64,000 nucleotides of DNA from Gammaproteobacteria bacterium (GCA_965238175.1 CBDEGZ010000003.1:934089-998088); one strand, 5' to 3'; counted from the stretch's first letter, positions 1,263-62,212 are shown. Notes: generated by a model from the sequence alone, not told the origin. Numbers and translations are program-made.

Positions 1263-1336
1263 TTAAATGATCGTAATGTTATGGTCGCGATAATACCTCA
1301 AATTGAAACCAATGTGCTCTTGGAGCCCAATTAGAT

Positions 1337-3073: not shown

Positions 3074-3136
3074 CTAGTAAATAACTTAAGGTCTGAAAGT
3101 TACTAATAGTAAAAAATTTATTTAGAGGATATAACG

Positions 3137-5444: not shown

Positions 5445-5514
5445 ATGATTGAAGTTTGATGAAGCAGTTTATTAAGTAGAAATTAAAAAGAAGTAATAAT
5501 ATAGAGGAAAAATT

Positions 5515-32162: not shown

Positions 32163-33388
32163 TGTAGAAGTTTAGACCCAATCTGACACATCACTAAATC
32201 AAGCGGAGCGTAGCGACGCTTGATTTAGTGAGAGTTACCCGCTTTGATGTAACTGCAACGTAAACATCAAAACACAAAGAGGTAACTCTCATGATTCATA
32301 CTAATGACAAAGTTATAAAACATAAAGTTGGTCTACTCAATCTCGCTGAAGAACTCGGCAATGTCTCAAAAGCCTGCAAGATGATGGGTTTGTCCAGAGA
32401 TACATTTTATCGCTACAAAGAAGCGGCTGATGAAGGCGGTGTAGAAGCCTTGTTTGATCGTAATCGGCGTACCCCAAATCTTAAAAACAGAATCGACCCG
32501 GCTATTGAAACCGTTGTGCTCGAGTATGCACTGGAAGAGCCCGCACATGGTCAAACGCGCACCAGTAACGAGCTGCGCAAACGGGGAACATTTGTCTCAC
32601 CCAGTGGCGTTCGTTGTATCTGGCTTCGTCATGGTCTTGCTTGCTTTAAAGATCGCCTGAAGGCATTGTCTGATAAGGTAGCTGGTGAAGGCTTGATCCT
32701 CACTGAGTCTCAAGTCGCGGCGATGGAACGCAAAAAAGACGACGATGAGGCTTGTGGCGAGATAGAGACGGCACACCCTGGTTATCTTGGCTCGCAAGAT
32801 ACTTACTATGTCGGTACTTTCAAAGGCATTGGTCGGGTTTATCAACAAACGTTTGTTGATACTTACAGCAAGGTCGCTCACGCGAAACTGTACCCGACTA
32901 AAACACCGATTACGGCAGCTGACATGCTCAATGACCGCGTCCTCCCATTCTACGAAGAACAACGTTTGCCTATGTTGCGCATTTTGACAGATAGAGGGAC
33001 GGAGTATTGTGGGCGAGCTGACCAGCATGATTATCAGCTTTATATGGCGTTGAACAATATCGAACACACCAAAACCAAGGTCAAATCACCTCAGACGAAT
33101 GGTATTTGTGAGCGATTCCATAAGACGATCCTCAATGAGTTTTATCAAGTCGCTTTGCGTAAGAAAATTTACCAATCGATTGATGAACTGCAACTCGACC
33201 TTGACGAATGGTTGCTCAAATACAATACTCAACGAACTCACCAAGGCAAAATGTGCTGCGGGAGGACGCCGATGGAAACACTCATCGACGGACAAGCTAT
33301 CTGGAAGGAAAAGTTTGTGAATTAAACTTAACCTGACAGTCGGTTACTGATAATTGGGTAACTGTCAGATCAAATCTGAATTTCTACA
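32163..33388 (+). mobile_element. IS481-family IS, copy 2, 7-bp TSD tcttaca
   Basis: Same 1226-bp sequence. tcttaca occurs at 32156-32162 and at 33389-33395. Confidence 0.9.
32291..33325 (+). CDS. IS481-family DDE transposase
   Basis: Identical 344-aa protein. Confidence 0.85.
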   Translation: MIHTNDKVIKHKVGLLNLAEELGNVSKACKMMGLSRDTFYRYKEAADEGGVEALFDRNRRTPNLKNRIDPAIETVVLEYALEEPAHGQTRTSNELRKRGTFVSPSGVRCIWLRHGLACFKDRLKALSDKVAGEGLILTESQVAAMERKKDDDEACGEIETAHPGYLGSQDTYYVGTFKGIGRVYQQTFVDTYSKVAHAKLYPTKTPITAADMLNDRVLPFYEEQRLPMLRILTDRGTEYCGRADQHDYQLYMALNNIEHTKTKVKSPQTNGICERFHKTILNEFYQVALRKKIYQSIDELQLDLDEWLLKYNTQRTHQGKMCCGRTPMETLIDGQAIWKEKFVN

Positions 33389-39023: not shown

Positions 39024-40249
39024 TGTAGAAGTTTAGACCCAATCTGACACATCACTAAATCAAGCGGAGCGTAGCGACGCTTGATTTAGTGAGAGTTACC
39101 CGCTTTGATGTAACTGCAACGTAAACATCAAAACACAAAGAGGTAACTCTCATGATTCATACTAATGACAAAGTTATAAAACATAAAGTTGGTCTACTCA
39201 ATCTCGCTGAAGAACTCGGCAATGTCTCAAAAGCCTGCAAGATGATGGGTTTGTCCAGAGATACATTTTATCGCTACAAAGAAGCGGCTGATGAAGGCGG
39301 TGTAGAAGCCTTGTTTGATCGTAATCGGCGTACCCCAAATCTTAAAAACAGAATCGACCCGGCTATTGAAACCGTTGTGCTCGAGTATGCACTGGAAGAG
39401 CCCGCACATGGTCAAACGCGCACCAGTAACGAGCTGCGCAAACGGGGAACATTTGTCTCACCCAGTGGCGTTCGTTGTATCTGGCTTCGTCATGGTCTTG
39501 CTTGCTTTAAAGATCGCCTGAAGGCATTGTCTGATAAGGTAGCTGGTGAAGGCTTGATCCTCACTGAGTCTCAAGTCGCGGCGATGGAACGCAAAAAAGA
39601 CGACGATGAGGCTTGTGGCGAGATAGAAACGGCACACCCTGGTTATCTTGGCTCGCAAGATACTTACTATGTCGGTACTTTCAAAGGCATTGGTCGGGTT
39701 TATCAACAAACGTTTGTTGATACTTACAGCAAGGTCGCTCACGCGAAACTGTACCCGACTAAAACACCGATTACGGCAGCTGACATGCTCAATGACCGCG
39801 TCCTCCCATTCTACGAAGAACAACGTTTGCCTATGTTGCGCATTTTGACAGATAGAGGGACGGAGTATTGTGGGCGAGCTGACCAGCATGATTATCAGCT
39901 TTATATGGCGTTGAACAATATCGAACACACCAAAACCAAGGTCAAATCACCTCAGACGAATGGTATTTGTGAGCGATTCCATAAGACGATCCTCAATGAG
40001 TTTTATCAAGTCGCTTTGCGTAAGAAAATTTACCAATCGATTGATGAACTGCAACTCGACCTTGACGAATGGTTGCTCAAATACAATACTCAACGAACTC
40101 ACCAAGGCAAAATGTGCTGCGGGAGGACGCCGATGGAAACACTCATCGACGGACAAGCTATCTGGAAGGAAAAGTTTGTGAATTAAACTTAACCTGACAG
40201 TCGGTTACTGATAATTGGGTAACTGTCAGATCAAATCTGAATTTCTACA
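39024..40249 (+). mobile_element. IS481-family IS, copy 3, flanks cttaaat / cttaaag
   Basis: Same 1226 bp with one substitution (a at 39628 where the other copies have g; synonymous). The TSD matches at 6 of 7 positions. Confidence 0.9.
39152..40186 (+). CDS. IS481-family DDE transposase
   Basis: Identical 344-aa protein. Confidence 0.85.
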   Translation: MIHTNDKVIKHKVGLLNLAEELGNVSKACKMMGLSRDTFYRYKEAADEGGVEALFDRNRRTPNLKNRIDPAIETVVLEYALEEPAHGQTRTSNELRKRGTFVSPSGVRCIWLRHGLACFKDRLKALSDKVAGEGLILTESQVAAMERKKDDDEACGEIETAHPGYLGSQDTYYVGTFKGIGRVYQQTFVDTYSKVAHAKLYPTKTPITAADMLNDRVLPFYEEQRLPMLRILTDRGTEYCGRADQHDYQLYMALNNIEHTKTKVKSPQTNGICERFHKTILNEFYQVALRKKIYQSIDELQLDLDEWLLKYNTQRTHQGKMCCGRTPMETLIDGQAIWKEKFVN

Positions 40250-41985: not shown

Positions 41986-42429
41986 ATGAGCGCCGTAGTC
42001 AATCAAAAGCTACGGGCTACGACAGCATTTCAAGCAGTTTCCGGTAAACAAAACTCTCACCCCGGCAAACGTGCTGCTCCTTTTTCACTTCGACTGACAG
42101 CCGACGAAAGAGCCTACCTTGAACAATTAGCAGGTAATCGCTCTCTGAGCGCCTACATCCGAGAACAGTTATTGGGTGACAAGGTACATAAACGCCGTGT
42201 CTTAAGAAAACCCAAAATGGATGAGGCGCAATACGCTTCCTTACTGGCAGCATTAGGGCAATCCCATCTCTCATCCAACCTCAACCAATTGGCAAAACAT
42301 GCCAACATGGGCACACTGGATGTTTCAGAAGAAACGGAACGACAATTGGAGGAAGCGTATAAAACCATCTTGGTGGTGCGAGAAACCTTATTGATGGCCT
42401 TGGGTCTCAAAACAGGAGATAGCACATGA
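41986..42429 (+). CDS. mobC: MobC-family relaxosome accessory protein
   Basis: FSLRLTADERAYLEQLAGNRSLSAYIREQLLG is the MobC signature. ATGA overlap with the relaxase start. Confidence 0.75.
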   Translation: MSAVVNQKLRATTAFQAVSGKQNSHPGKRAAPFSLRLTADERAYLEQLAGNRSLSAYIREQLLGDKVHKRRVLRKPKMDEAQYASLLAALGQSHLSSNLNQLAKHANMGTLDVSEETERQLEEAYKTILVVRETLLMALGLKTGDST

Positions 42430-43709
42430 ACCTGCAAGGCAGTCAACGCGGTGGCGCAAAAGACCTAGCATTGCATCTTCTCAAAGAAGAGAACGAACAT
42501 GTTGAAGTGCATGAGCTACGTGGGTTTGTGTCTGATGATTTAGTCTCTGCCCTCAACGAAACCCATGCAATTAGTCGTGGCACCAAAGCCAAACAATTCT
42601 TGTTTTCTCTTAGCCTGAACCCACCTCCAAAAGAAAACGTTTCAACAAAGACGTTTGAGGATGCGATACAACGGGTGGAAGACAAGCTAAACCTGACCAA
42701 TCAACCCCGCGGCATTGTCTTTCATGAAAAACAGGGGCGTCGTCACGCACATGCGGTCTGGTCGCGCATTGATACAGAAACCATGAAAGCTATTCCGTTA
42801 CCGCACACACGTTACAAACTCAGAGATATTTCCCGCGAGTTATATTTAGAAAATGGCTGGGATATGCCAAAGGGTTATCTGAATTCCAAAGAACGTGATC
42901 CTAAAAATTTTACCCATGCTCAATGGCAGCAAGCCAAACGCTTGGGTAAAGACCCACGAGAAATAAAGGCTGCGTTTCAGGAGAGTTGGTCAATCAGTGA
43001 TACTCAAAGCGCTTTTCAGCAGGCCTTGAAAGAACGGGGTTACGCATTGGCAAAAGGTGATAGACGCGGTTTTGTCGCCCTCGACCATCGCTGTGAAGTC
43101 TTCTCAGTCCCAAAGTGGACAGGCCTTAAAACCAAAGACATCAAAACCAAACTCACCGAGAAAGAAAATCTGCCTTCGGTTGATACTGCCAGAGCGCAGA
43201 TTTCCAAGGAGATGCAATCACGGTTAACGACATTGCAAAGGCAACAACACGAAGCAATTGAGGGACGTGTGAGTGAGATTGAGCAAAAGCGGGTGCCGTT
43301 GATGCAAGCTCAGCAAGCTGAACGCCTTCAACTTAAAGCATCTCAGCAAACTCGCTGGCAAGCTGAAACCTTGCAACGACAGGCGCGATTTAATAAAGGG
43401 CTACGAGGATTGTTTGATCATGTCACAGGTCAGCGCCGCCGTATCCAAGAACAAAATGAGCAGGAAACCTATGAATCCAGCGAGCGCGATAAACAAGAAA
43501 AAGACACGTTAATCTTTACACAACTCAATCAGCGGCGAATGTTACAGAGCCGTATTGAACGCTTGCAAGATTTTAAGCAGCACCGGGTTGAATCACTCTC
43601 CCATGACATTAAGCAATACCAAGAAGTCAGAGAGAGAAAACGTGAAGTTGTCGATTTTAAAGAGCGAATGCAACAGCGCCGCCAACGAGGGCCTGAACGT
43701 GAGCGTTAA
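42426..43709 (+). CDS. Relaxase/mobilization nuclease (MobA/VirD2 family)
   Basis: N-terminal relaxase domain with the HAHAVWSRID histidine motif. Coiled-coil Gln/Arg-rich C-terminal half. Confidence 0.85.
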   Translation: MNLQGSQRGGAKDLALHLLKEENEHVEVHELRGFVSDDLVSALNETHAISRGTKAKQFLFSLSLNPPPKENVSTKTFEDAIQRVEDKLNLTNQPRGIVFHEKQGRRHAHAVWSRIDTETMKAIPLPHTRYKLRDISRELYLENGWDMPKGYLNSKERDPKNFTHAQWQQAKRLGKDPREIKAAFQESWSISDTQSAFQQALKERGYALAKGDRRGFVALDHRCEVFSVPKWTGLKTKDIKTKLTEKENLPSVDTARAQISKEMQSRLTTLQRQQHEAIEGRVSEIEQKRVPLMQAQQAERLQLKASQQTRWQAETLQRQARFNKGLRGLFDHVTGQRRRIQEQNEQETYESSERDKQEKDTLIFTQLNQRRMLQSRIERLQDFKQHRVESLSHDIKQYQEVRERKREVVDFKERMQQRRQRGPERER

Positions 43710-47102: not shown

Positions 47103-47609
47103 TTACCGTTCGCGGTCTTTATCCCGGTTAGATTTTGTCCGTATTTTCTGCCGATGTTCACGTACCTGCTTATTCAGGGCTTTATCATCCCGGTCAATCA
47201 CATTCAGGTTACGGTTTCTTGCATTCTCCCGCACCTGTTCAATCGTGGTTTTAATCAAGCCTTGCGGTAAATAACCGTAGGCCAATTCACCAAATTGGGT
47301 TTTTCTCACATCCGGGCCTTGCCATGTAAAACGGTTCACTTCACGGGTGATGATCCAAGATTGATCATCATCTAGCTTTAGACGTTGTTTCGTGGCTAAC
47401 GGAATTTCTTTAGCCTGAGTTAAGTCGTCAGGGGGTGTATGCGTAATCGGACAGATAAAGACTTCGGTTTCATCGAACTCATTCAAGCGTTTATGAACAA
47501 TGACGCAAGGCCGGGCTTTACGTCCTTCCTCGTGTCCTCGTTGTTGTTCATCCCGCCAAAGATACAAATGACGGATAACCAAGCCTATTTCAGGGGTATC
47601 CTCCGCCAT
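47103..47609 (-). CDS. PemK/MazF-fold-like toxin candidate with long basic C-terminal tail
   Basis: GLVIRHLYLW..(14)..KARPCVIV...VFICPITH resembles the MazF/PemK G.h..V.F...RP.hVh...hhP.T pattern. It lies 6 nt downstream of a Phd-type antitoxin. Confidence 0.5.
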   Translation of the reverse strand: MAEDTPEIGLVIRHLYLWRDEQQRGHEEGRKARPCVIVHKRLNEFDETEVFICPITHTPPDDLTQAKEIPLATKQRLKLDDDQSWIITREVNRFTWQGPDVRKTQFGELAYGYLPQGLIKTTIEQVRENARNRNLNVIDRDDKALNKQVREHRQKIRTKSNRDKDRER

Positions 47610-48215: not shown

Positions 48216-48734
48216 CTAATGGCTCCAGAATATATGCGCTTCTTGACAGCCCGTTTCGATAGTGTAAATATCGCCGCCCATTTCCATGTCACGCCCCATG
48301 CGTTCATAGTCGATATAGAACGCTAAATGTTCTGGAATATCGGTGGTGGTGTCTTCGGTGAGTTGCTGGGCGTAACCGGCCACACTTTCATATTCACCAC
48401 TGTAATTTTCTTCTAAGGCTTTTCGGGCATCTTCGATGTCACCGCACCAATGATTTAAAACCGCTGCTCCCAACTCGCCGTGTTCTTCAATAAACAGGGC
48501 TTTATTGTTGGCACTTTCCAATCCTTCATATTCTGAAAGTTCGACACCGCCAAATCCTTCGTAATCATGCAGCGAATATTCTTCTGCATCTTCAATAGGG
48601 CTGGCTTTCAGCATGTCTCGGACAGCTTTCAAGATATCCTGTAAATCCTGCGTCGCATCAATCCATGCACCATGCAAAATACCGTTGTTGTAAGCGGCTA
48701 AATCTGCCACGTGAATTTTAGGTTCTATGTTCAT
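48216..48734 (-). CDS. ardA: Antirestriction protein ArdA
   Basis: HVADLAAYNNGILHGAWIDA N-terminus, very acidic, YIDYERMGRDMEMGGDIYTIE C-terminus. These are ArdA hallmarks. Confidence 0.85.
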   Translation of the reverse strand: MNIEPKIHVADLAAYNNGILHGAWIDATQDLQDILKAVRDMLKASPIEDAEEYSLHDYEGFGGVELSEYEGLESANNKALFIEEHGELGAAVLNHWCGDIEDARKALEENYSGEYESVAGYAQQLTEDTTTDIPEHLAFYIDYERMGRDMEMGGDIYTIETGCQEAHIFWSH

Positions 48735-49103: not shown

Positions 49104-49886
49104 ATGGCAGAAACACAAATCGAATGGACAGATGCGACGTGGAATCCAGTTGCAGGTTGCTCTCTCGCAAGTGCCGGTTGCAAACACTGCTACGCCATGC
49201 AAATGGCTAGACGACTTGAGGCCATGGGGATCGACAAATACAAAGGACTTACTCAGAAGCGAGGCAAAAATGTCACATGGAATGGTATTGTTAAAGAAGA
49301 TAAATCTTCTTTATTAATTCCCTATACGTGGAAAAAACCGCGTAAAATTTTCGTAAATTCAATGAGCGACTTATTTCACGAAGATGTCAGTGAGGCATTT
49401 ATTCTTTCTGTCTGGAAAGTGATGCGCGAAACACCACAGCATAATTATCAAATATTGACTAAGCGTCCAGAAAGAATGCATCAAATCGTCTCCAAGAAAA
49501 TCAAAATAGTACTGCCAAATGTTTGGTTAGGCACGAGTGTTGAAAACGCAGAAGTCACTGAACGAATAAACCACTTACGCAAGATTCCTGCTGCCATAAG
49601 GTTTATCTCCTTTGAGCCACTTATTGACTCTGTTGGTTCTGTTAATTTGAAGAATATTCACTGGGCGATTGTTGGTGGTGAAAGCGGCAACAAAGCCAGA
49701 CCTATAAAAGAAGAATGGATTGATGAAATTCATGAACAGTGTGATCTCTACGATACGGCCTTCTTCTTTAAACAATGGGGTTCTTGGGGGAAAGACAATC
49801 AAAAACGATCTAAAAAAGCCAATGGCCGTGAATATAGGGGTAGAACGTGGGATGAAATGCCCATAACAGGTAATGTAGCAATGTAA
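49104..49886 (+). CDS. DUF5131 (phage Gp37/Gp68) family protein, three-Cys motif
   Basis: IEWTDATWNPVAGCSLASAGCKHCYA N-terminus (CX6CX2C) is the family signature as I recall it. Confidence 0.8.
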   Translation: MAETQIEWTDATWNPVAGCSLASAGCKHCYAMQMARRLEAMGIDKYKGLTQKRGKNVTWNGIVKEDKSSLLIPYTWKKPRKIFVNSMSDLFHEDVSEAFILSVWKVMRETPQHNYQILTKRPERMHQIVSKKIKIVLPNVWLGTSVENAEVTERINHLRKIPAAIRFISFEPLIDSVGSVNLKNIHWAIVGGESGNKARPIKEEWIDEIHEQCDLYDTAFFFKQWGSWGKDNQKRSKKANGREYRGRTWDEMPITGNVAM

Positions 49887-49905: not shown

Positions 49906-51159
49906 GTGGTAAAGAAAAAAATTGATTGGGAAGGTGGCGCTGAACTTGAAGACCACACAAAGAAAAAGCATACTATTCTTGAGAAATATTTTAGAGAATA
50001 TCTGATTATTCGTTGCCAGTTACCCCAACAGGAAAAATTCAGACTGGCTATAGTTGATGGGTTTTCTGGAGCAGGTCAATACAAGTGCGGCAGTTATGGC
50101 TCACCTCTCATATTTGTAGACGTACTCAGAAAAACCACAAATGAGATTAATTTACGCCGCGTAAATCAGGGTATACGCCCTATCCAGATCGAGTGTTTAT
50201 TAATCTTGAATGATTACGAGAAGTCTGCCGTTGAACTGCTTCGTAAAAATATTTCTCCTCTCTTAGTCGAGGCAAAAGATAATAACGACAAACTCTATAT
50301 AGAAACTGAATTCTTAAATGGAGCATTTGAGACAGTTTATCCCCAGATAAAAAAGAGATTGTTAACTGCAAGATGCAATAACGTGTTGTTCAATTTGGAT
50401 CAGTGTGGTTATTCACTTGTTCCAACAATTATTATTAGTGACATAGTGAGTACATGGCGTTCGGCTGAAATTCTTCTTACATTTATGATCAAAAGTATGT
50501 TGACATATTTATCTGCGAAAGAAGGAGCGAATAATGTTCCTTTAGAGCCTGAAATGAAGCAAAAGATCGATGCTTTATTGAGCGATAGCGATAACCTTCT
50601 TGGGAAAAAGGAATGGCTAGGTGAAGCTGAGAAAATTGCTCACGCTCATCTCCAAAACTGCGCAACATATGTGAGCCCCTTTTCAATCAATAACCCCTCT
50701 GGTTGGCGTTATTGGTTGATGCATTTTGCTAATGCGTATCGCGCTCGGCAAGTCTACAACGACATACTCCATCAGGTTAGTGCATCGCAAGCACATTACG
50801 GGCGACCAGGTTTGAATATGTTGTCATATGATCCTCAAGAAGAAGGGCAGCTATATTTATTTAGCGATGACTCCAGACAATCTGCGAAAGAGGCATTGTA
50901 TGACGATATTCCAAGGTTTGTAGCGGCATCGGGTGACACGCTTGCCATGCAGGATTTCTATGCTGCTGCATATAGCGAGACACCAGCTCATAGTGATGAT
51001 ATTCATGAAATGATTATTCAGAACCCTGATATGGAAGTCGTCACTGAATCAGGCGGCAACCGCCGAAAGGCTAACACGATTAAAGCAAATGATACTTTGA
51101 AGCTCAAGAGCCAGAAAAGTATGTTTTTTATGTTTTCAGATGTCCCCGAAAAAAAATAA
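49906..51159 (+). CDS. tcmP: Three-Cys-motif partner protein TcmP (tentative)
   Basis: 417 aa, immediately downstream of DUF5131. LEDHTKKKHTILEKYFREYL...IVDGFSGAGQY resembles the TcmP N-terminus. GTG start. Confidence 0.6.
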   Translation: MVKKKIDWEGGAELEDHTKKKHTILEKYFREYLIIRCQLPQQEKFRLAIVDGFSGAGQYKCGSYGSPLIFVDVLRKTTNEINLRRVNQGIRPIQIECLLILNDYEKSAVELLRKNISPLLVEAKDNNDKLYIETEFLNGAFETVYPQIKKRLLTARCNNVLFNLDQCGYSLVPTIIISDIVSTWRSAEILLTFMIKSMLTYLSAKEGANNVPLEPEMKQKIDALLSDSDNLLGKKEWLGEAEKIAHAHLQNCATYVSPFSINNPSGWRYWLMHFANAYRARQVYNDILHQVSASQAHYGRPGLNMLSYDPQEEGQLYLFSDDSRQSAKEALYDDIPRFVAASGDTLAMQDFYAAAYSETPAHSDDIHEMIIQNPDMEVVTESGGNRRKANTIKANDTLKLKSQKSMFFMFSDVPEKK

Positions 51160-51391: not shown

Positions 51392-51429
51392 GCTTTGTAC
51401 TACCATTTAGGAAAATGGTAGTACAAAGC
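51392..51429. other. Perfect 17-bp inverted repeat with 4-nt loop in a 570-bp non-coding gap
   Basis: gctttgtactaccattt-agga-aaatggtagtacaaagc. There is no flanking T-run on either strand. Confidence 0.7.
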
Positions 51430-51729: not shown

Positions 51730-51939
51730 TTACAAGTAATAATCAGAAGGACTGCTTGTCTCGGCTTGGAACGATATGATTTCTTTATCTGCTTCCCAAG
51801 GAAGGCGCATTGATTTTTTCAAAAATACAGTCTGATACTTTTTATCAGTTTCAAGCCCATTTTCAACAATCATCTCTATCGCTTTATCATGTATCTGAAT
51901 CTTCCTACCAGAAGCTTTCTCCGTAAACTCTATCAACAT
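51730..51939 (-). CDS. Hypothetical 69-aa protein, last gene of the NTPase cassette
   Basis: ORF 32 nt downstream of the 153-aa gene. No family recognised. Confidence 0.4.
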   Translation of the reverse strand: MLIEFTEKASGRKIQIHDKAIEMIVENGLETDKKYQTVFLKKSMRLPWEADKEIISFQAETSSPSDYYL

Positions 51940-51971
51940 TTCATACCTTTCTGACTTGAGAGTTTTTTTAG

Positions 51972-52433
51972 TTATGTCTTTGTTACCGAATCTTTTAGCT
52001 TTTGTATACCATTATCTTTACCTTTTGCGTAATCATCGTCAAGAAGAGCATTTCTATCATTAATTTGTTTAAAAGTGTTCCAGAAAAACTTGTCTACTTC
52101 TTTTACAACCGCTCCATACTCCGCCTTGGTGACATGAGGCAACGTGGACAAGACGTCAAGATACGTGCTTCTAATCTGGTATTCGGAACGGCCATTTCCA
52201 TTTCTCTCAAGTAGAGCATCAATATAATTTATAAGTGATAATAAAGAATTTTTAGCCAATAAATGCTGGTGCCTTTTTTCTCTACGCGAAATTAATATCT
52301 CAGCTTGATAGCTTGTAAAAAGCTGTAATAAAAGTGAAATGAAGACTCCAGCAAATAAGTAAACCATTCCATTGGGCATTGACTCCATTGTCATGGTAAT
52401 GGCTTGTTTAAAATCATTAATTAATGTGCACAT
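51972..52433 (-). CDS. Hypothetical single-pass membrane protein (153 aa)
   Basis: N-terminal TM helix MVYLFAGVFISLLLQLF. The start is 3 nt after the stop of the 842-aa gene. Confidence 0.5.
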   Translation of the reverse strand: MCTLINDFKQAITMTMESMPNGMVYLFAGVFISLLLQLFTSYQAEILISRREKRHQHLLAKNSLLSLINYIDALLERNGNGRSEYQIRSTYLDVLSTLPHVTKAEYGAVVKEVDKFFWNTFKQINDRNALLDDDYAKGKDNGIQKLKDSVTKT

Positions 52434-52436
52434 TAA

Positions 52437-54965
52437 TTAGATACCATAAGCTACAGGGAAAATCTTACTAAAATAATTGTGAAAGCTCTTGTATTCGTTA
52501 TATAACTCTTCCTGAGCTGGAAGCTCATCTTTTTTCACAGCGTAGTAGTAAACATCCTCAATAGATTTTTTAACAATCAAATCTGTATTAAATAGATTGC
52601 AATCAATGTTTGATAAATCTCCCCATACGTTTACGTACTTTTTCATCTCCACCTCTTGCGCAGCTTTTAACAAACCCATAAAACGAACTACCTTTCGAAG
52701 TTTGTGCCCCATGACTTTTACATAGCAGTGGGGGTAATCTTCTCTCACGAGATAAGAATAATTGAACATAGTTATGTATTGAAACGGTGCATATTCTAAG
52801 GACTGAGGGTTTTGATATAAATTAGGTAGCCCTAGTTCCTTATTCCGAATTTCAACTCTCGGTAATATACTTAGCCGATGAGTTTCAGGTGGGAGTGGCA
52901 ATTTTGGGTCATCAATTACTAATTGCGTATATAAAAAATCAGCCACCAAGGGCAGATCATCACTATTTGCATCTTCATGAAAAAGTTCCTTAGCTCTAGG
53001 CGTAAGCTCGATATTTTCATGGTCAAATTTCTGTTTCCTCAGGCTAGAGAGTCGTCTTTCTACCTGCAATAATCTTGGGCCTTGTTGAATGCGTTGAAGT
53101 CTGGTTATAGTCTTACAAAAACTTATGATATCGTAAAACCCATTAGGGTTGCCTTCACCACTTCTATTATTTGGGTAATCGCAAAAATGTTCTAACAACT
53201 CCTTCAACCTGATCTTCCCGTTTGTTTTTAAAAAGTCCACAATCATTGGTATTAGCCAATAATCTGGTGTGCTTGGCCGTTCTTCATTGGTATAGGCTAA
53301 AAACACATTTGGGAAATGGGAGTTATGCTCTGAAAAACGAATTCTATGCCTAGAGGCTTGCACCATGATTGCAAGGTTTGGTTTCTTAAAAATCCTATTT
53401 TGCGCATTAACATTTAGTTTATCGTGAGAAGAGTCCTGTTGCACCCATGAGAATGCTTTAAAAACTCTTATCGCGTCACGGAGGCCTGAGCCCGATAGTT
53501 TTACTATCCTATCAATTGACTTTGCATGCCTATTATTCATTGCCTTTACTGAAACAGGATTTTTTTCATAGTCACTTAGTTTTTTTGCGAGATCACTTAC
53601 GGTTTTTACTAGGGCATTGATTTGTTTGATATGGTTTATTACCTTATGGTTCTTTTCATCTTGTGAGTTTAGGGTATCAAAGGAATCGTTCAGAGCCTTT
53701 CTTAACTCACTCAAAGTGGCATTCATATCCAAAAAGGTATCGGGTAATTCAATAAGACTTTCATCGGTGGGTTTCTTATGATTGATCAGTTCACACTGCA
53801 ATAAAAGTCGACATCCAATAGCTAGGTAATGTAAACGTTTGAGAATAATTAACTGTGCAGGTGCTTTTGAAGTTGAGTGAAGCGAGTATGTGTTTTCTGA
53901 TGAAATTAGCTTATCTCCACCACCTGCAGATATTGATGAAGAAAGTTGCTCTAGAAGACTATATGAATCTTTTCTAAGTATAATTAGTATCGCCCCACAA
54001 ACCTTTGACCAATTTCTATTTGATGAAAGAAGATTTCCTAAAACAGTTATAAACGAAAACAAGCACTTCTGTTTTTTGTCCTTGATTTTTGTCTTGCCAT
54101 TTTTCACCGATATAGTTTGTATTTCGTCATTCTCATGAAAAACAAAGTCAATATTATCTAAGATGATGATAACATTCCGCTTTGAGGCTCTTTTTAGATA
54201 GCCTAAGTACTCTATAGTCTCAACTTCTGCTTTATGTTCTTCTTTCTTCTGAACATACTTAAATATATTCTTCTCGTATGTTTCAAAGGCATCTTTATCA
54301 TTTTCAGAAAAAAAGTTAACTTCTTTGTGAGTGGTTAAGCTCTCTCGTACTTGATTCACTTTTCTTACAACTTCAAGACAGAATTGATTCATATCGAAAC
54401 CATCACGATAGAATTGTTGTAGGTTTATTCTAATGAACCATATCTTATCGTTCTGAATCGAGTTTGCTATTAAATGTGACGACAGAATATAACTAAGAAA
54501 TGATGACTTTCCAGAGCCAACATCACCGACTATGGAGAAAACTGAACTACGGCGATTAACTGAGCTTTTAATAAAAACCCTTTGAAAAAATTCGTCGATG
54601 GATTTTTCTGCAGACTCTTCTAATTGCGAGCCATGACTTTGCCCTTGCCCATGATGCACCATAGGCAAATCAAGAAGTTTTAGAATGTAATAATATCTTC
54701 TTAAAATATCATTCCTTCCCCCCGAAGTTAAAAGGGCATCTTCAGGAATATTTTGAGGATTATCTAAAGCCTTTCCATTTAGAAGCCCACTGGCATCAAA
54801 ACTTATAGCCTGTTCATCAAAAACAAATTGGAATAATTTATCTAGCTCATTATACCTTGCTCTAAAAGGACCCTCATCGTTATTAACCAATGGATTAACG
54901 GTTGATAAGCTGCCCTCATGTTCTGACGTACAATCACGATATGTAAACCAATTAGGATTTGTCAT
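52437..54965 (-). CDS. Large P-loop NTPase (842 aa), STAND/KAP-like; N- and C-terminal regions unassigned
   Basis: Walker A VGDVGSGKSSF. Candidate Walker B VIIILDNIDF about 125 aa later. No other motif recognised. Confidence 0.6.
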   Translation of the reverse strand: MTNPNWFTYRDCTSEHEGSLSTVNPLVNNDEGPFRARYNELDKLFQFVFDEQAISFDASGLLNGKALDNPQNIPEDALLTSGGRNDILRRYYYILKLLDLPMVHHGQGQSHGSQLEESAEKSIDEFFQRVFIKSSVNRRSSVFSIVGDVGSGKSSFLSYILSSHLIANSIQNDKIWFIRINLQQFYRDGFDMNQFCLEVVRKVNQVRESLTTHKEVNFFSENDKDAFETYEKNIFKYVQKKEEHKAEVETIEYLGYLKRASKRNVIIILDNIDFVFHENDEIQTISVKNGKTKIKDKKQKCLFSFITVLGNLLSSNRNWSKVCGAILIILRKDSYSLLEQLSSSISAGGGDKLISSENTYSLHSTSKAPAQLIILKRLHYLAIGCRLLLQCELINHKKPTDESLIELPDTFLDMNATLSELRKALNDSFDTLNSQDEKNHKVINHIKQINALVKTVSDLAKKLSDYEKNPVSVKAMNNRHAKSIDRIVKLSGSGLRDAIRVFKAFSWVQQDSSHDKLNVNAQNRIFKKPNLAIMVQASRHRIRFSEHNSHFPNVFLAYTNEERPSTPDYWLIPMIVDFLKTNGKIRLKELLEHFCDYPNNRSGEGNPNGFYDIISFCKTITRLQRIQQGPRLLQVERRLSSLRKQKFDHENIELTPRAKELFHEDANSDDLPLVADFLYTQLVIDDPKLPLPPETHRLSILPRVEIRNKELGLPNLYQNPQSLEYAPFQYITMFNYSYLVREDYPHCYVKVMGHKLRKVVRFMGLLKAAQEVEMKKYVNVWGDLSNIDCNLFNTDLIVKKSIEDVYYYAVKKDELPAQEELYNEYKSFHNYFSKIFPVAYGI

Positions 54966-55092
54966 AATTTTCTCAACTTGTATTTATATGTTTTTATATG
55001 AATTTCGTTGTGCTAATTTATGAATTCAAATATTTTGGTTTTTATTTTTCGATAGTTTAGAATAAAGTAAGAATCCACACTAAGCGTTATGC

Positions 55093-55701
55093 TTAGAAAT
55101 CGCTGACAACATCTAAGAAGGATTTGCTTTCGTTCAAGTCCAGAGGTTCTGCTTCGAGCTCTGATTTAAACAATAGAAATGCCTTTTCAGATAATTTATA
55201 TATTATTTTCTCGTTCGAAATTTCAGTCAGGCCACTCTCTCTCCCCGCTGCCATTATCAGAGAAGCATAGCCGACGTAACTACCAAAAAAACGACTATTA
55301 ATTCCATATGATTGTTTGAATCGACCTTTTAGAATTTTCAAAAAAAAGAGCATTTGTGGTTTCACTTCAAGCATCGAATTGTTGACATCTTTTGGTGAAA
55401 CCCTTCTCTCTTCATCGTAATTCCATGTACCCACCAAAAAGTGCCGTATAGTCGCAATTAATTTTTTCATTAAATCTGGCCTTTTTAGAGCTAACTGGCG
55501 ATAGTTGAAAGTCTGTAACGCACGGCTTCCTAGTGCTTGGTAATATTTATGCACAGTTACCTTTGATACGAAAGTTTTCTTTGCGGTTTTGTCAGCCTCA
55601 ACTCCTTCACACCAATATTTTAGAACACTTAAAAACTTATCCTCACTCAGGTTAGAGTTTTTTACGAACTTATTTTTAGGTGTATAGAATTTACGCGGCA
55701 T
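55093..55701 (-). CDS. Hypothetical 202-aa protein (possible N-terminal HTH), upstream of the NTPase
   Basis: Same strand, 127 nt upstream of the NTPase gene, AT-rich. VSKVTVHKYYQAL looks HTH-like. Confidence 0.4.
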   Translation of the reverse strand: MPRKFYTPKNKFVKNSNLSEDKFLSVLKYWCEGVEADKTAKKTFVSKVTVHKYYQALGSRALQTFNYRQLALKRPDLMKKLIATIRHFLVGTWNYDEERRVSPKDVNNSMLEVKPQMLFFLKILKGRFKQSYGINSRFFGSYVGYASLIMAAGRESGLTEISNEKIIYKLSEKAFLLFKSELEAEPLDLNESKSFLDVVSDF

Positions 55702-55816: not shown

Positions 55817-56119
55817 ATGTTCAACAAATCCAAGTCCTCTAGTAATAAGGGGCAATCAACCGTCGAAAGTTCACTCTACGGGATGGCAAATATGCTGGCA
55901 TTAATAGCTGCATTTCTTGTCGCTCCGCAGATTTACGAGCATTCGGCAGATCCCGTCTATATGTATTTACTTAATTCCTACAGCGATCAAACACTGGCGG
56001 AATTAGGAATCTACGTGTGGACATTCCTTGCAACCGCCTGTGTGTATTTTTTAAGCCGCGCCATCTTTGTATTGGCGCTCATGCTGATTGCACAGCGGCT
56101 GCTTGTTTTAGCATTTTAA
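55817..56119 (+). CDS. Small polytopic membrane protein (100 aa)
   Basis: Two to three TM helices. RBS aagagg. Confidence 0.45.
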   Translation: MFNKSKSSSNKGQSTVESSLYGMANMLALIAAFLVAPQIYEHSADPVYMYLLNSYSDQTLAELGIYVWTFLATACVYFLSRAIFVLALMLIAQRLLVLAF

Positions 56120-56137
56120 ATAAACAGGAGAAATATC

Positions 56138-56263
56138 ATGCCAAAAAAAGTATTAAGCAAACCAGTCGGTACTGTCCATAGAGTCGAATCCAAATGGACT
56201 TTTAGTGACTATGTAATCGGTGCTGTCATTGTGTTTGTTTTAATCGCTGTCTTCTCTGGCTAA
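56138..56263 (+). CDS. 41-aa single-TM protein
   Basis: Manual ORF MPKKVLSKPVGTVHRVESKWTFSDYVIGAVIVFVLIAVFSG with RBS caggag. It is followed by the gccccgc-ttcg-gcggggc hairpin (56289-56306). Confidence 0.35.
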   Translation: MPKKVLSKPVGTVHRVESKWTFSDYVIGAVIVFVLIAVFSG

Positions 56264-56325: not shown

Positions 56326-57936
56326 ATGAACTACGAACAAGACCGTTTCGGCAGTGCCGGAGCCGTTTCAACCCATGCGTTGAAACACGCCAAGATTATT
56401 GGTGGTAAAGGCATCAGTTTTGGTTTTGATGCCACCAAGCGTCATGAACTCCGTATTCCCACCGATGGCTCAACCGCCTTATTCGGTGGTGCAGGAAGTG
56501 GTAAAAGCGCAGGCCCCTTTGCCAATGCATTAATTGGTGGACATCTACCGGGTAATTTTATCTGTTTTGACCCACGCGGCGAACTCGCTGCTGTTAGCAT
56601 GCTATCCCTATCGCTACAGGGTTATGAAATTTTTTACATTAACCACACCGGCATGTTGGGTTTACCCCAGCATCAAGTCAATCCACTCGACCATCTGAGA
56701 ATTGATAGTCCAAGTTTAATTCCCGATGCCCAAAAATCGGCACTGGACTTTTGTCCTACCCCGGCGGGGATGCGAGCGAGTTGGGCCTTTGATGATGCGA
56801 GGCGTTGGCTTACAGATTTATCACTCTATGATGCGGAACGTAATGGCTGTGCCAGCTTACCCGGTATCTATCAATTACTGCTTTCCTTACAAGGCGATTT
56901 AAACCAATGGTGCCAACATCTAGATCGGATGCTGCAATCACGCTTTGCAACCGTCCGTAGCTTTGCTAATGAGATTATGAGTTTGCAGCAAGAAGGCCGT
57001 GAGAGTTTTACCGCGCCTATGGGTGTGTTGCAAAATGCCTTTGCCTTTATGCGTGACCCACGTTTGCAACATACCTTCAGTGGTAATGACTTTTCTCTGC
57101 AATGGCTCACAGAGCCTAATCGCAAAATCGGAGTATTCGTCAATTGGCCTATTGAGTATATCGACACCCAAGCCCCGGCCATTCGGCAAGTGATTGGCTC
57201 GGCCATTCAAAACAAACTACGTCAGCCGGGGAGTCAGCCTGTTAGTGTATTAATTGACGAAGCAGGTCAACTCAAAAACTTTCCTTCTGTGAGAGAACTT
57301 TTCACCTTTGGCCGAGGTGCAGGTCTTATCAGCAATATGGTGGCATGGCAGGAGATTTCTCAAATTCGTGCTGCTTTTGGCCCCCAAGCTGATGAGATTA
57401 TTGGTTCAGCACAGTTCAGAGTATTCAAGGGCGTACGTACGATGGACAGTGCCATGATGGTCTCACGTATGGCAGGCACCATGACGTTGGAATATGACGC
57501 TGTAAAAGAACAATCCGATGCCCGGCGTCTAAAACAACAGGCCGCCCAACGGATGCTAACAGGTGGGAGTTTCTTTGAAGCGGCGGCGGATTTACGGCAT
57601 TACAACGAGGCCGAAGAGCATCGCACCAAACAGGCCCGTCTAGTACTACAACCAGATGAAGTGCTGAACCTGCCACCCACTGCCATGGTCGCGTTTGCCT
57701 CCGGTTTGGTCGAAGGCCCAATTATTGGACATTGGATTAATCACTTTGAGCGTGCTGACTTTCCCGGAAAGTATCTCAACAACCCCTACCATGGAGAAGA
57801 GGTGCTACTTAAAACACGTTGGGGGTCAAAAAAGGCACGCATTATCGAAGAATCTGTTCCCGATGTCATGGCACATCTGCCGCAATACCAAAGCGGTACA
57901 TGGCGATATGTGGAAGGCTATCGCCCAAAAATATGA
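56326..57936 (+). CDS. Type IV coupling protein (TraG/VirD4/TraD-like ATPase) lacking an N-terminal TM domain
   Basis: Walker A FGGAGSGKSAG at about aa 55. Walker B VSVLIDEAGQL. No hydrophobic N-terminus. Confidence 0.65.
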   Translation: MNYEQDRFGSAGAVSTHALKHAKIIGGKGISFGFDATKRHELRIPTDGSTALFGGAGSGKSAGPFANALIGGHLPGNFICFDPRGELAAVSMLSLSLQGYEIFYINHTGMLGLPQHQVNPLDHLRIDSPSLIPDAQKSALDFCPTPAGMRASWAFDDARRWLTDLSLYDAERNGCASLPGIYQLLLSLQGDLNQWCQHLDRMLQSRFATVRSFANEIMSLQQEGRESFTAPMGVLQNAFAFMRDPRLQHTFSGNDFSLQWLTEPNRKIGVFVNWPIEYIDTQAPAIRQVIGSAIQNKLRQPGSQPVSVLIDEAGQLKNFPSVRELFTFGRGAGLISNMVAWQEISQIRAAFGPQADEIIGSAQFRVFKGVRTMDSAMMVSRMAGTMTLEYDAVKEQSDARRLKQQAAQRMLTGGSFFEAAADLRHYNEAEEHRTKQARLVLQPDEVLNLPPTAMVAFASGLVEGPIIGHWINHFERADFPGKYLNNPYHGEEVLLKTRWGSKKARIIEESVPDVMAHLPQYQSGTWRYVEGYRPKI

Positions 57937-58969: not shown

Positions 58970-59314
58970 ATGAAAAATAATAACACTATTGAAATCGCTG
59001 ACTATAGCGAAGAGCAAAACGATATTGCGGTTGTGCCGCCCCTGCAATTGGAGCCGGATGACTATCGGGATGAGTTGGCAGAATTTGAGCTTACACCCGA
59101 GCAGGAAACTGAACTGTTGCAAGTACTCTGGAATATCATGTCAACAATGGTTGACCTTGGTTGGGGACTGGATTCTGTACAACTGTTTTCATTGCCAAAA
59201 GCACATAAAATTGACAGCGATTCCAGTGACAAGGTAAAACTAACAGACAACAACCAAGCATTTAATCAGACCGCAGGAAATACAACTGAGAAAGGCAACA
59301 ATGATGAAAAATGA
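58970..59314 (+). CDS. Acidic hypothetical protein overlapping the recombinase start
   Basis: The ATG at 58970 lies 4 nt after ggagg. The N-terminal half is very acidic. 14-nt overlap with the recombinase ORF. Confidence 0.45.
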   Translation: MKNNNTIEIADYSEEQNDIAVVPPLQLEPDDYRDELAEFELTPEQETELLQVLWNIMSTMVDLGWGLDSVQLFSLPKAHKIDSDSSDKVKLTDNNQAFNQTAGNTTEKGNNDEK

Positions 59315-60860
59315 AACAAATAAGAAAGCCCTTATCTACTGTCGCGTTTCCAGTAAGAAACAAACTAAAGGCAGTGGGTTGGACAGTCAGGAACACCGTT
59401 GCCGTCAATATGCAGCCTCTAAGGGCTATGAAGTCGAAGCTGTTTTTCCCGATGATGTAACCGGAGCAGGTGATTTTATGAAACGTCCCGGCATGGTGGC
59501 CTTGCTAGCGTATCTGCAAGCGCAGACAGACAGCAATTACGTGGTGATTTTCGACGATCTCAAACGTTTCGCTCGTGACACTATCTTTCACTGGGGGTTA
59601 CGTCACAAGCTCTTAGAATATGGCGCTACAGTGGAATGCCTGAATTTCAACTTTGAAGATACACCGGAAGGTGAGTTTGTTGAAACCATTGTTGCTGCGC
59701 AAGGGCAGCTTGAACGCCAGCAAAACCGCCGTCAGACCTTGCAAAAGATGAAAGCCCGACTTGAGAAAGGTTTTTTCGTTTTTCAGGCACCCATTGGTTA
59801 TCGCTATCAGAAATCACAGTATGGTGGAAAAGAATTAGTCAGGAATGAACCGCTTGCCAGTATCATGCAAGAGGCATTGGAAGGGTTTGCCACGGGTCGG
59901 TTTCAGATCAAGGCTGAGGTGAAACACTTTCTGGAGAGTTTTCCTGATTTCCCACGAGGCCCAAGCGGAGTCATCGGTAGTTCACGTATTGATGAAATGC
60001 TGACCCGTGTTACTTACGCTGGATATATTGAGCATAAGGACTGGGGAGTGAGTTTACGAAAGGCGCGCCATGAAGGAATAATCAACTTTGAAATGTTCCA
60101 GAAAATACAGGAGCGTCTTAGAGGTCGAGCTAATGCGCCAGCCAGAAAAAATATCAATCAGGATTTTCCGTTGCGCGGCTTTATCAGTTGCTCGTGTGGA
60201 AAACCGTTAACCGCAGCATGGTCAAAGGGGCGTAATACCCATTACCCCTATTATTTTTGTCAGGCTCGCGATTGCAGTCATTACGGTAAGTCCATCAAGC
60301 GTGAAGTCATAGAAGGCGAATTTAAAACCCTGCTCAAACAACTAACCCCAACAAAGGAATTAATCGGGGTCGCCAGCATCATGTTTGAAAAGCTATGGAA
60401 TCATCGAGCGCAATATCAACAATCTCGTGTCTCCATGCTTGATACTGAATATATCAAAATTGATCGCAGTATCGACAAATTGCTTGATCGAGTCGTTGAT
60501 GCTGAATCACCAACAGTGATAAATGCACTTGAGAAACGAGTTAAAGCATTGGAAGAAAAGAAAATTGTGATACAGGAAAAAACCGCCAATTGTCGCCGCC
60601 CGGTAAAGGCCTATAGTGACAGTTATAGAACCGCTATGGAATTCCTCGCTAAGCCTTATAGGCTATGGGCTTCCGATCGGCTTGAAGATAAGCGAGCAGT
60701 GCTAAAATTAGCCTTTGCAGACCGCTTAACCTATGTGCGTGGCGAAGGTTATAGAACCGCAAAAACCACCTTACCTTTCAAGGTATTAGGGGATTTTTTT
60801 GCTCAAAAAGAAGTAATGGTGGGCCCGGGAGGACTCGAACCTCCGACCAATGGATTATGA
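59301..60860 (+). CDS. Large serine recombinase (integrase of the element)
   Basis: LIYCRVSSKKQ catalytic Ser, a recombinase domain, and a Zn-ribbon Cys cluster (CSCGKPL...YYFCQARDC). The last 12 codons are antisense to the tRNA gene. Confidence 0.9.
   Translation: MMKNETNKKALIYCRVSSKKQTKGSGLDSQEHRCRQYAASKGYEVEAVFPDDVTGAGDFMKRPGMVALLAYLQAQTDSNYVVIFDDLKRFARDTIFHWGLRHKLLEYGATVECLNFNFEDTPEGEFVETIVAAQGQLERQQNRRQTLQKMKARLEKGFFVFQAPIGYRYQKSQYGGKELVRNEPLASIMQEALEGFATGRFQIKAEVKHFLESFPDFPRGPSGVIGSSRIDEMLTRVTYAGYIEHKDWGVSLRKARHEGIINFEMFQKIQERLRGRANAPARKNINQDFPLRGFISCSCGKPLTAAWSKGRNTHYPYYFCQARDCSHYGKSIKREVIEGEFKTLLKQLTPTKELIGVASIMFEKLWNHRAQYQQSRVSMLDTEYIKIDRSIDKLLDRVVDAESPTVINALEKRVKALEEKKIVIQEKTANCRRPVKAYSDSYRTAMEFLAKPYRLWASDRLEDKRAVLKLAFADRLTYVRGEGYRTAKTTLPFKVLGDFFAQKEVMVGPGGLEPPTNGL
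60802..60824 (+). repeat. attR-side copy of the 23-bp direct repeat
   Basis: Identical to 41868-41890. It spans the recombinase 3' coding region and the tRNA 3' end. Confidence 0.85.
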
Positions 60861-60893
60861 GTCCACTGCTCTAACCAACTGAGCTACAGGCCC
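60817..60893 (-). tRNA. ileX: tRNA with CAU anticodon, most likely tRNA-Ile2 (lysidine)
   Basis: Manual fold: acceptor GGGCCTG/CGGGCCC, D stem GCTC/GAGC, anticodon stem GTGGA/TCCAT with loop CTCATAA, T arm GGAGG-TTCGAGT-CCTCC, encoded CCA. C4-G69, C5-G68 and G27-U43, together with the position next to rpoD, resemble E. coli ileX. Confidence 0.85.
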
Positions 60894-60986: not shown

Positions 60987-62212
60987 TGTAGAAGTTTAGA
61001 CCCAATCTGACACATCACTAAATCAAGCGGAGCGTAGCGACGCTTGATTTAGTGAGAGTTACCCGCTTTGATGTAACTGCAACGTAAACATCAAAACACA
61101 AAGAGGTAACTCTCATGATTCATACTAATGACAAAGTTATAAAACATAAAGTTGGTCTACTCAATCTCGCTGAAGAACTCGGCAATGTCTCAAAAGCCTG
61201 CAAGATGATGGGTTTGTCCAGAGATACATTTTATCGCTACAAAGAAGCGGCTGATGAAGGCGGTGTAGAAGCCTTGTTTGATCGTAATCGGCGTACCCCA
61301 AATCTTAAAAACAGAATCGACCCGGCTATTGAAACCGTTGTGCTCGAGTATGCACTGGAAGAGCCCGCACATGGTCAAACGCGCACCAGTAACGAGCTGC
61401 GCAAACGGGGAACATTTGTCTCACCCAGTGGCGTTCGTTGTATCTGGCTTCGTCATGGTCTTGCTTGCTTTAAAGATCGCCTGAAGGCATTGTCTGATAA
61501 GGTAGCTGGTGAAGGCTTGATCCTCACTGAGTCTCAAGTCGCGGCGATGGAACGCAAAAAAGACGACGATGAGGCTTGTGGCGAGATAGAGACGGCACAC
61601 CCTGGTTATCTTGGCTCGCAAGATACTTACTATGTCGGTACTTTCAAAGGCATTGGTCGGGTTTATCAACAAACGTTTGTTGATACTTACAGCAAGGTCG
61701 CTCACGCGAAACTGTACCCGACTAAAACACCGATTACGGCAGCTGACATGCTCAATGACCGCGTCCTCCCATTCTACGAAGAACAACGTTTGCCTATGTT
61801 GCGCATTTTGACAGATAGAGGGACGGAGTATTGTGGGCGAGCTGACCAGCATGATTATCAGCTTTATATGGCGTTGAACAATATCGAACACACCAAAACC
61901 AAGGTCAAATCACCTCAGACGAATGGTATTTGTGAGCGATTCCATAAGACGATCCTCAATGAGTTTTATCAAGTCGCTTTGCGTAAGAAAATTTACCAAT
62001 CGATTGATGAACTGCAACTCGACCTTGACGAATGGTTGCTCAAATACAATACTCAACGAACTCACCAAGGCAAAATGTGCTGCGGGAGGACGCCGATGGA
62101 AACACTCATCGACGGACAAGCTATCTGGAAGGAAAAGTTTGTGAATTAAACTTAACCTGACAGTCGGTTACTGATAATTGGGTAACTGTCAGATCAAATC
62201 TGAATTTCTACA
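60987..62212 (+). mobile_element. IS481-family IS, copy 4, 7-bp TSD tattagt
   Basis: tattagt occurs at 60980-60986 and at 62213-62219. The right copy contains the rpoD stop codon. Confidence 0.9.
61115..62149 (+). CDS. IS481-family DDE transposase
   Basis: Identical 344-aa protein. Confidence 0.85.
   Translation: MIHTNDKVIKHKVGLLNLAEELGNVSKACKMMGLSRDTFYRYKEAADEGGVEALFDRNRRTPNLKNRIDPAIETVVLEYALEEPAHGQTRTSNELRKRGTFVSPSGVRCIWLRHGLACFKDRLKALSDKVAGEGLILTESQVAAMERKKDDDEACGEIETAHPGYLGSQDTYYVGTFKGIGRVYQQTFVDTYSKVAHAKLYPTKTPITAADMLNDRVLPFYEEQRLPMLRILTDRGTEYCGRADQHDYQLYMALNNIEHTKTKVKSPQTNGICERFHKTILNEFYQVALRKKIYQSIDELQLDLDEWLLKYNTQRTHQGKMCCGRTPMETLIDGQAIWKEKFVN

Follow-up and report, generated by a model that had tools for sequence, protein, structure and literature searches.

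STAND-type nucleoside triphosphatases (NTPases) with separately encoded effectors are already known from NTP-dependent conflict systems (Kaur et al., 2020, PMC7159879; PMC13581612), and the STAND receptors, which include Avs, bNACHT and the clades of PMC13581612, are found as mobile cargo near defence genes, with a rare and patchy spread. Defence is one function among others in this class, as 391 of 589 STAND clades were not classed as defence-associated (PMC13581612); the background rate of defence context quoted there is about 1.5%. The locus described here shares the mobile setting and the patchy spread of these receptors. It lies at positions 51730-55701 of a 64,000-nt stretch from a Gammaproteobacteria bacterium (GCA_965238175.1, CBDEGZ010000003.1:934089-998088; the whole stretch is called the window below), and consists of genes for an 842-aa P-loop NTPase (p842), a small membrane protein (p153) and a small soluble protein (p69), which we tentatively propose to be a new defence module. 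The open reading frames (ORFs) of this segment, and the spacer that precedes the trio, are:

55093-55701, minus strand: 202-aa ORF (p202)
54966-55092, minus strand: spacer between p202 and p842, 127 nt, AT-rich, opening the variable cargo slot
52437-54965, minus strand: 842-aa ORF (p842)
51972-52433, minus strand: 153-aa ORF (p153)
51730-51939, minus strand: 69-aa ORF (p69)

The original prediction described these four same-strand ORFs as a single AT-rich cassette, and the coordinates confirm the layout, with gaps of 127 nt between p202 and p842, 3 nt between p842 and p153, and 32 nt between p153 and p69. The by-eye judgement that the segment is richer in AT than the backbone around the type IV coupling protein (T4CP) was also correct, as GC content is 35.5% across 51730-55701 versus 41.2% for the whole window and 47-49% in the T4CP region (56-58 kb); equally AT-rich DNA is found elsewhere in the window, at 28-30 kb (34-35% GC) and 34-36 kb (32.5-34% GC). 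The cassette itself lost a member: the 153- and 69-aa partners recur with the NTPase at other loci, whereas the 202-aa gene does not. A four-gene cassette was ruled out, and p202 was placed outside the conserved module, because no homologue of p202 was found beside any other NTPase-bearing locus; elsewhere it is a backbone gene. These comparisons leave a conserved unit of three genes in the mobile-element clade and two, the NTPase and the membrane protein, family-wide. The conservation of p842, p153 and p69 in independent loci, beyond what chance would produce, argues that these ORFs are real genes. The 127-nt spacer presumably holds the promoter of the trio; promoter-like matches around it were no better than chance, a terminator scan was likewise at chance level, and no upstream motif was common to the window and the mobile-element loci L001, L002 and L003 (L numbers denote the contigs or loci of relatives).

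The NTPase and its membrane partner

p842 is an uncharacterised, cytoplasmic P-loop NTPase, probably of the STAND type. Both motifs noted in the original prediction, GDVGSGKSS at residues 147-155 (Walker A) and IIILDNID at 266-273 (Walker B), are near-invariant across 92 relatives, in which G147, G150, G152, K153, D270, N271, D273 and R331 are at least 90% conserved; further near-invariant positions include H277, D280, R496, P552, N553, Y679, P692, Y736 and E773. With these motifs intact the family is predicted to be active, and a catalytic role is inferred for R331. Hydropathy gave no indication of a transmembrane helix in p842 (19-residue Kyte-Doolittle maximum 1.22).

A full HMMER scan of 1.84 billion cluster representatives recovered 94 p842-family proteins, all from metagenomes or metagenome-assembled genomes (MAGs), for which the sole available name was the generic “GTPase SAR1 family protein”. 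Close full-length relatives number only four of the 94 (P0002-P0005, 843-878 aa, 31-41% identity), and the remaining members are about 670-760 aa long and align over their full length at 17-22% identity. Near-identical DNA was absent from PLSDB plasmids and E. coli genomes, and first scans of genome and metagenome contigs with the close-clade alignment returned no match. Searches of Pfam, NCBIfam, PHROGs and PADLOC found nothing above cut-off for p842, p153, p69 or p202, in agreement with the earlier view that the gene set fits no named system. Sub-threshold matches of p842 were to AAA_16 (18.5 bits, cut-off 32.6), nSTAND1 (13, cut-off 27.1), NPHP3_N (14.7, cut-off 24.8) and AAA_22. Among 55 family members the Pfam models matched were AAA_16 (44), AAA_22 (36), ATPase_2 (18) and NACHT (11), with some distant members reaching AAA_16 at E 7e-10, and no PADLOC system was consistently matched across the 55. 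A sequence search of the PDB with p842 alone gave no match; with the family profile, matches to TRIP13, ORC4, Cdc6 and RdrA were at the level of the P-loop only (ORC4 and Cdc6 at E 0.002-0.02, RdrA 8hr7 at E 0.017).

An AlphaFold2 model of p842 was built from the 92-sequence alignment (pLDDT 89.7, pTM 0.91). It predicts an N-terminal region (1-100), a P-loop alpha/beta NTPase domain (about 100-365), a helical lid (369-500), a winged-helix-like region (about 570-655, with a helix and beta-hairpin at 571-654) and an all-helical C-terminal domain (660-842). The NTPase domain is interrupted by a three-helix insert at 192-261, between beta2 and beta3 and ahead of the Walker B strand. The best Foldseek matches were ORC4, Orc1 and Cdc6 (E 5e-4 to 1e-2), NOD2, Apaf-1, NLRP3 and RdrA; alignments to NOD2, Apaf-1 and NLRP3 covered 400-600 columns and those to ORC/Cdc6 were equally good, but query-normalised TM-scores were only about 0.2, and so no known structure fits the whole chain. 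Among viral predicted structures the best match to p842 was no better than E 9e-3. The possibility of an effector hidden in the C-terminal domain was pursued by modelling the last 183 residues alone (pLDDT 89.1), which had no significant match in the PDB (best E 0.7), and no effector domain was detected in p842 by Pfam, PADLOC or fold searches. By this model, p842 is a nucleotide switch of the STAND/ORC-like kind, in which the terminal domains are novel and no enzymatic effector can be recognised.

p153 has one transmembrane helix, at residues 23-45 or thereabouts (19-residue Kyte-Doolittle maximum 1.94), in the N-terminal position originally proposed. Its short N-terminus lies outside, and its helical tail of about 108 aa should be cytoplasmic because 4 of the 15 residues that follow the helix are lysine or arginine. 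p69 has no transmembrane helix by hydropathy and is soluble. The trio recurs in L001, L002 and L003, with each of the three products about 34-39% identical, and the pair alone is found in L007 and L009:

L001: NTPase 878 aa; membrane partner 155 aa; small protein 65 aa
L002: NTPase 866 aa; membrane partner 173 aa; small protein an uncalled ORF at 13137-13328
L003-L006: NTPase 871 aa; membrane partner 140 aa; small protein 65 aa
L007/L008: NTPase 843 aa; membrane partner 128 aa; no small protein
L009: NTPase frameshifted; p153-like ORF at 5019-5462; no small protein

The p153 homologues of L001, L002, L003, L007 and L009 are 23-39% identical to p153. Homologues of p69 (37-39% identity) occupy the same position in L001 and L003, in addition to the uncalled ORF of L002, and a p69 counterpart is missing from L007 and from all distant loci, confining p69 to the mobile-element clade. 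In L001, L002, L003 and L007 the NTPase and partner genes overlap or abut (-11 to +8 nt), which, with the 3-nt gap in the window, upholds the predicted coupling of the 842- and 153-aa genes and marks p153, on gene arrangement, as the translationally coupled partner of the NTPase. Since the partners diverge about as much as the NTPase does, the trio is passed on as a unit. Also found in L003 (7569-7874), and in L004-L006, was a 102-aa arginine-rich ORF abutting the NTPase start codon; it is restricted to this lineage, has no homologue in the window or the other loci, and may be spurious in this GC-rich DNA.

Seven genomic loci of the wider family come from Chlorobiaceae, Acidobacteria, Nitrospirae, Planctomycetaceae, Thiotrichaceae and Sedimentisphaerales MAGs and from the chromosome of Desulfoluna limicola (NZ_AP024488.1, about 614.7-616.8 kb), and metagenome loci are additional to these. 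In about 20 distinct loci, which together span at least six phyla, a downstream membrane-protein gene is the sole conserved neighbour; it overlaps the NTPase gene in most and is present at nearly every locus with enough downstream sequence; apart from this partner, and p69 in the close clade, an all-against-all comparison of ORFs across the loci found no conserved neighbour. The usual distant partner is 210-320 aa long and consists of a signal or transmembrane segment, a beta-rich outward-facing domain of about 100 aa, a second transmembrane segment and a helical tail of about 100 aa (L010, L012-L016, L018, L020, L021, L023, L027), while short single-helix partners like p153 are found in L025, L026 and L030. 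No Pfam family was matched by the outward domain. Horizontal transfer would fit such a rare family, scattered over many phyla, as well as its low GC content against the backbone in the window.

Several genes near the distant homologues matched PADLOC models. Next to the module are an IetA-like ATPase in L012, a HerA/mad8-like ATPase in L017 and, directly adjacent, PDC-S01 (L013 and L016, E 4e-116 and 5e-139), and a reverse transcriptase-like gene is close by in L018. A pooled scan of neighbour ORFs also gave viperin and mad3 matches, without placement in a locus. In three loci with no other relation to one another (L013, 6581-7345; L018, 5636-6682; L001, 3028-4767), a ParB-like protein (ParB_N plus HTH_ParB) is encoded within 1-3.5 kb on the upstream side of the NTPase gene, which could reflect a loose association or a mobile-element background. 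Some NTPase homologues are broken, by frameshifts in L009 (2385-5018) and L014 (1724-3841) and by an insert of about 1.3 kb in L017 (7899-11482, the Sedimentisphaerales MAG), and these copies are either decaying accessory genes or assembly errors.

The mobilizable element and its cargo slot

p842, p153 and p69 are encoded by a single, horizontally mobile operon, which an integrative mobilizable element has as its cargo. Four homologues of p202 were found; those in L034/L035, L036/L037 and L039 are 52-64% identical to p202, and each of them is encoded divergently from the T4CP module. Small ORFs follow this module in L034 and L036, and after them a large serine recombinase 53-54% identical to that of the window. 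This synteny makes p202 a backbone gene of the element family, one that borders a variable cargo slot; at the DNA level, the window and L034 are homologous up to 14 nt ahead of the p202 stop codon. The genes found after p202 are:

Window: the p842/p153/p69 trio
L034: McrBC, Mrr/HARE-HTH nuclease, type I HsdR/HsdS
L036: HTH_17, ResIII/RE endonuclease, N6/N4 methyltransferase (type III-like restriction-modification), UvrD helicase

Because restriction systems fill the same position in relatives, the slot occupied by the trio is the strongest argument for a defence role. p202 itself may be a helix-turn-helix (HTH) protein, given a weak match to GerE. It is AT-rich like the trio (36.8% GC), although the loci of its relatives are 48-51% GC, and for this reason recombination with an AT-rich relative may have brought in p202 along with the trio.

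Mobile-element genes (ArdA, ParB, ParE or PemK toxins) always accompany the close clade. A resolvase, 38-48% identical, is common to four close-clade loci, and the relaxases of the window and L002 are 47% identical. The same relaxase-bearing contig of L002 holds a Gabija-like pair at 522-3675, 6.3 kb upstream of the trio, in which a UvrD-like helicase of 482 aa accompanies a 574-aa protein with AAA_15/AAA_21 and OLD-TOPRIM domains.

The presence of a relaxase, a T4CP and a large serine recombinase in the chromosome identifies the element as an integrated mobilizable one; that it is integrated follows from the tRNA-Met gene abutting the recombinase and from the chromosomal genes upstream, TCA-cycle genes among them (sucA, lpdA, gltA and coxA), the window lying inside a 3.33-Mb contig. 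Its main features are:

42426-43709: relaxase, 43.5% identity to an annotated relaxase
47103-47609: PemK toxin
48216-48734: ArdA
56326-57936: T4CP
59301-60860: large serine recombinase
60817-60893, minus strand: tRNA-Met, the sole Rfam match, overlapping the 3' end of the recombinase by 44 nt

The region of the recombinase and tRNA-Met (59301-60893) is probably the integration end of the element. Directly after it is one of four IS3-family copies in the window (12666-13700, 32291-33325, 39152-40186 and 61115-62149), all of which have a transposase ORF of 344 aa (“InsO family”) and, antisense, the same ORF of 156 aa. Their 90% cluster has 294 members in the protein collection. The cargo neighbours named in the original prediction, ArdA, toxin-antitoxin (TA) genes and a DUF5131-TcmP pair, are present; the pair consists of a DUF5131 protein (49104-49886, E 3e-102) and, after 19 nt on the same strand, a 417-aa GMT-like winged HTH (TcmP-like) protein (49906-51159). 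The 570 nt that separate p69 from the convergent TcmP-like gene contain an inverted repeat with perfect 17-bp arms and a 4-nt loop (51392-51429, GCTTTGTACTACCATTT-AGGA-AAATGGTAGTACAAAGC). It has no T-run after it, and could terminate transcription in both directions or be a site of recombination or a cargo boundary. Between p202 and T4CP, at 55817-56263, are two small hydrophobic ORFs (100 and 41 aa), in the position where L034, L036 and L039 have genes of about 423 aa and about 285-289 aa instead. The T4CP of the window had no tblastn match (E < 1e-6) in L034 or L036, both of which encode a T4CP by Pfam.

What the trio may do

From this context we favour, with a confidence that falls slightly short of even, the view that the trio is a new defence module, switched by its NTPase and with the membrane protein for an effector, which most likely shields either host or element from phages or from rival plasmids. 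At rest, p842 would be a monomeric, nucleotide-locked cytoplasmic STAND/ORC-like switch driven by NTP. A cue derived from the invader would bind its unique helical N- or C-terminal domain, the cue-bound protein would oligomerise, and the oligomer would pull the cytoplasmic p153 tails together and so cluster the transmembrane helices, damaging or depolarising the inner membrane so that the infection is aborted. Output is assigned to p153 because p842 has no enzymatic domain and a co-translated membrane protein is its only universal partner. p69, present in the mobile-element clade only, could be a regulator, inhibitor or adaptor of the membrane step.

A number of observations weigh against this view. 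The cargo-slot argument draws on just two independent relatives (L034 and L036). In PADLOC-DB v2.0.0 (2023), the source of the defence-system models used here, p202, p153 and p69 have no match and p842 matches only at the level of the P-loop, and PDC-S01 is only a candidate defence gene. The flanks of the wider family are mixed: the 103 neighbouring ORFs in 12 loci include many housekeeping genes, among them glutamate synthase, a tRNA synthetase, aspartokinase and nusA/infB/rbfA. No docking domain of the effector-associated docking (EAD) kind was detected as common to p842 and p153 or p69 (hhalign probability at most 1.4%). p153 is probably homologous to the larger distant partners, as hhalign aligned it with their transmembrane-plus-tail portion (probability 69%, E 4.5e-5), but that match is dominated by the transmembrane helix, and with full-length profiles the probability was only 2.9%. 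The outward-facing domain of most distant partners would suit a sensor better than a killer. Relatives of p842 are also absent from PLSDB plasmids, INPHARED phages and IMG/VR, an observation that belongs on this side and yet is neutral on defence.

Of the other explanations, the one that survives best, although we consider it unlikely, reverses the direction of signalling: the membrane partner would sense and the NTPase would transduce the signal or act on it, still possibly in defence, as in Kiwa or Zorya. The beta-rich outer domain of the partner would report phage adsorption, DNA injection, conjugative mating or envelope stress, and the ORC-like NTPase would act via its modelled winged helix, for instance on incoming DNA, which it might bind or block; in the window clade the arrangement would be reduced, with sensing inside the membrane. 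Because most distant partners have an outward-facing domain, the membrane partner could equally be a sensor, and the lack of an effector domain in p842 agrees with this. So do the top fold matches, which are DNA-binding AAA+ plus winged-helix proteins of the ORC/Cdc6 type, and the large helical insert between beta2 and beta3 of p842; initiator-clade AAA+ proteins carry a DNA-contacting insert between the same two strands. The outer domain, however, is dispensable for the core function, since it is missing from the window clade, L025, L026 and L030; it has no Pfam match, and the low TM-scores to ORC are nearly equalled by those to STAND proteins. A broader and rather less probable form of the idea is that the pair is an unrecognised, phylum-spanning, membrane-coupled ORC/STAND-like switch, in which a bitopic partner, in most cases with a domain facing outward, reports an envelope event to an effector-less NTPase acting on incoming DNA or on the membrane, and the trio of the window is its mobile-element-adapted form.

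A function outside conflict, either as a membrane-tethered replication or segregation factor like ORC/Cdc6 or as a MalT/LAL-like STAND regulator that occupies the slot incidentally, is improbable. Replication initiators are the best fold matches, several wider-family loci lie amid core metabolic and translation genes, and non-defence STAND clades are common, as noted above, but the family is extremely rare and patchy (94 representatives in 1.8 billion), is conserved within no lineage, and has interrupted or pseudogenised copies in L009, L014 and L017 of a kind typical of dispensable accessory genes; moreover, the mobile-element clade is carried as cargo, and no DNA-binding output domain or HTH is recognisable in p842. 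The least probable account, a selfish maintenance or competition module in which p153 is a membrane toxin, p69 its antidote and p842 a regulator, or one that excludes related elements, would suit a close clade that is always on mobile elements near TA toxins, ArdA, ParB, resolvase and relaxase, a trio that adjoins the T4CP module and a small soluble protein encoded right behind a small membrane protein, but it sits poorly with a wider family that is chromosomal, lacks p69 and is often found among housekeeping genes, with an 842-aa NTPase that is conserved along its whole length and would be an unusually heavy TA regulator, and with relatives whose slot is filled by restriction systems and not by TA or exclusion genes.

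If the trio does defend, it would add a family that escapes the profile libraries and defence-finding tools now in use. As a STAND/ORC-like switch of minimal design, with its output in a separate, co-translated membrane protein and not in a fused enzyme, it would be a handy system for the study of NTPase oligomerisation coupled to membrane damage or envelope sensing. Were the phylum-spanning switch to prove true, it would represent a new signalling architecture for bacterial immunity and go beyond an exchange of effectors on a STAND protein. Further systems could be mined from the cargo hotspot that p202 borders in serine-recombinase/T4CP mobilizable elements of uncultured Gammaproteobacteria, and if the function is not defence, a conserved two-gene unit across at least six phyla remains.

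Comparison with described systems

Judged by the definition of Leipe et al. (2004), p842 resembles STAND proteins in having Walker A and B motifs and, at the positions indicated by sequence and model, an arginine (R331, the sensor 1 position of that definition) after strand 4, and in its sub-threshold matches to AAA_16, NACHT and nSTAND profiles. The modelled helical lid and winged-helix-like region may be further points in common, the fold matches to NOD2, Apaf-1 and NLRP3 being equalled by those to ORC/Cdc6. It departs from them in that no STAND cut-off of Pfam or PADLOC is attained, and neither GxP nor MHD-type motifs were identified in it. The originally noted resemblance to KAP/STAND-type NTPases was supported for STAND but failed for KAP, which was ruled out as p842 has no transmembrane insertion and KAP_NTPase was matched by 3 of 55 family members, p842 not among them.

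PifA, mad8, TRIP13, Avs and RdrA were each rejected as the identity of p842, the matches being at P-loop level only. To PifA, p842 aligns over model positions 33-138 of 720, the P-loop (E 0.0016, 15 bits). Avs proteins differ in their N-terminal effector and large repeat sensor, both absent from p842, and one of the 55 members gave a weak Avs1a match (E 0.0012). RdrA of RADAR is likewise a large defence ATPase of the STAND or “archaeal ATPase” type, with a weak fold match confined to the NTPase core (8hr8, E 0.019), but no RdrB adenosine deaminase is encoded in the trio operon or the related loci, and PADLOC gave no RdrA match. The best Foldseek matches within ORC/Cdc6 were ORC4 (7jpo_D, E 5e-4) and archaeal Orc/Cdc6 (1w5t, TMt 0.43), with which the p842 model appears to share the AAA+ core, lid, winged helix and helical insertion before the Walker B strand; p842 differs in its 10-14% identity, query TM-score of about 0.2, extra terminal domains and membrane partner, and an ORC-CDC6-like Pfam model was matched by one of the 55 members. 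The combination of a membrane and a cytoplasmic component is the general logic of Kiwa (KwaAB), Zorya, RexAB, PifA and Tmn/KAP, and PifA and Tmn, like p842, have P-loop NTPase domains, but Kiwa, Zorya, Rex and Tmn had no match to the trio proteins.

No description of this gene set was found in the literature, although a text search may miss the supplementary tables of the 589 clades (PMC13581612). Relative to the STAND receptors, p842 has neither a fused effector nor a sensor of TPR, WD40 or other repeats, and the region after its core is short, consisting of a winged helix and a novel helical domain of 183 aa; the trio also differs in lacking a detectable EAD and in its obligatory, coupled membrane partner with one or two membrane passes. 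What is new, and in no library queried, is the p842 family itself, with its novel C-terminal domain, its freedom from fused effector and repeat sensor, and its obligatory membrane partner.

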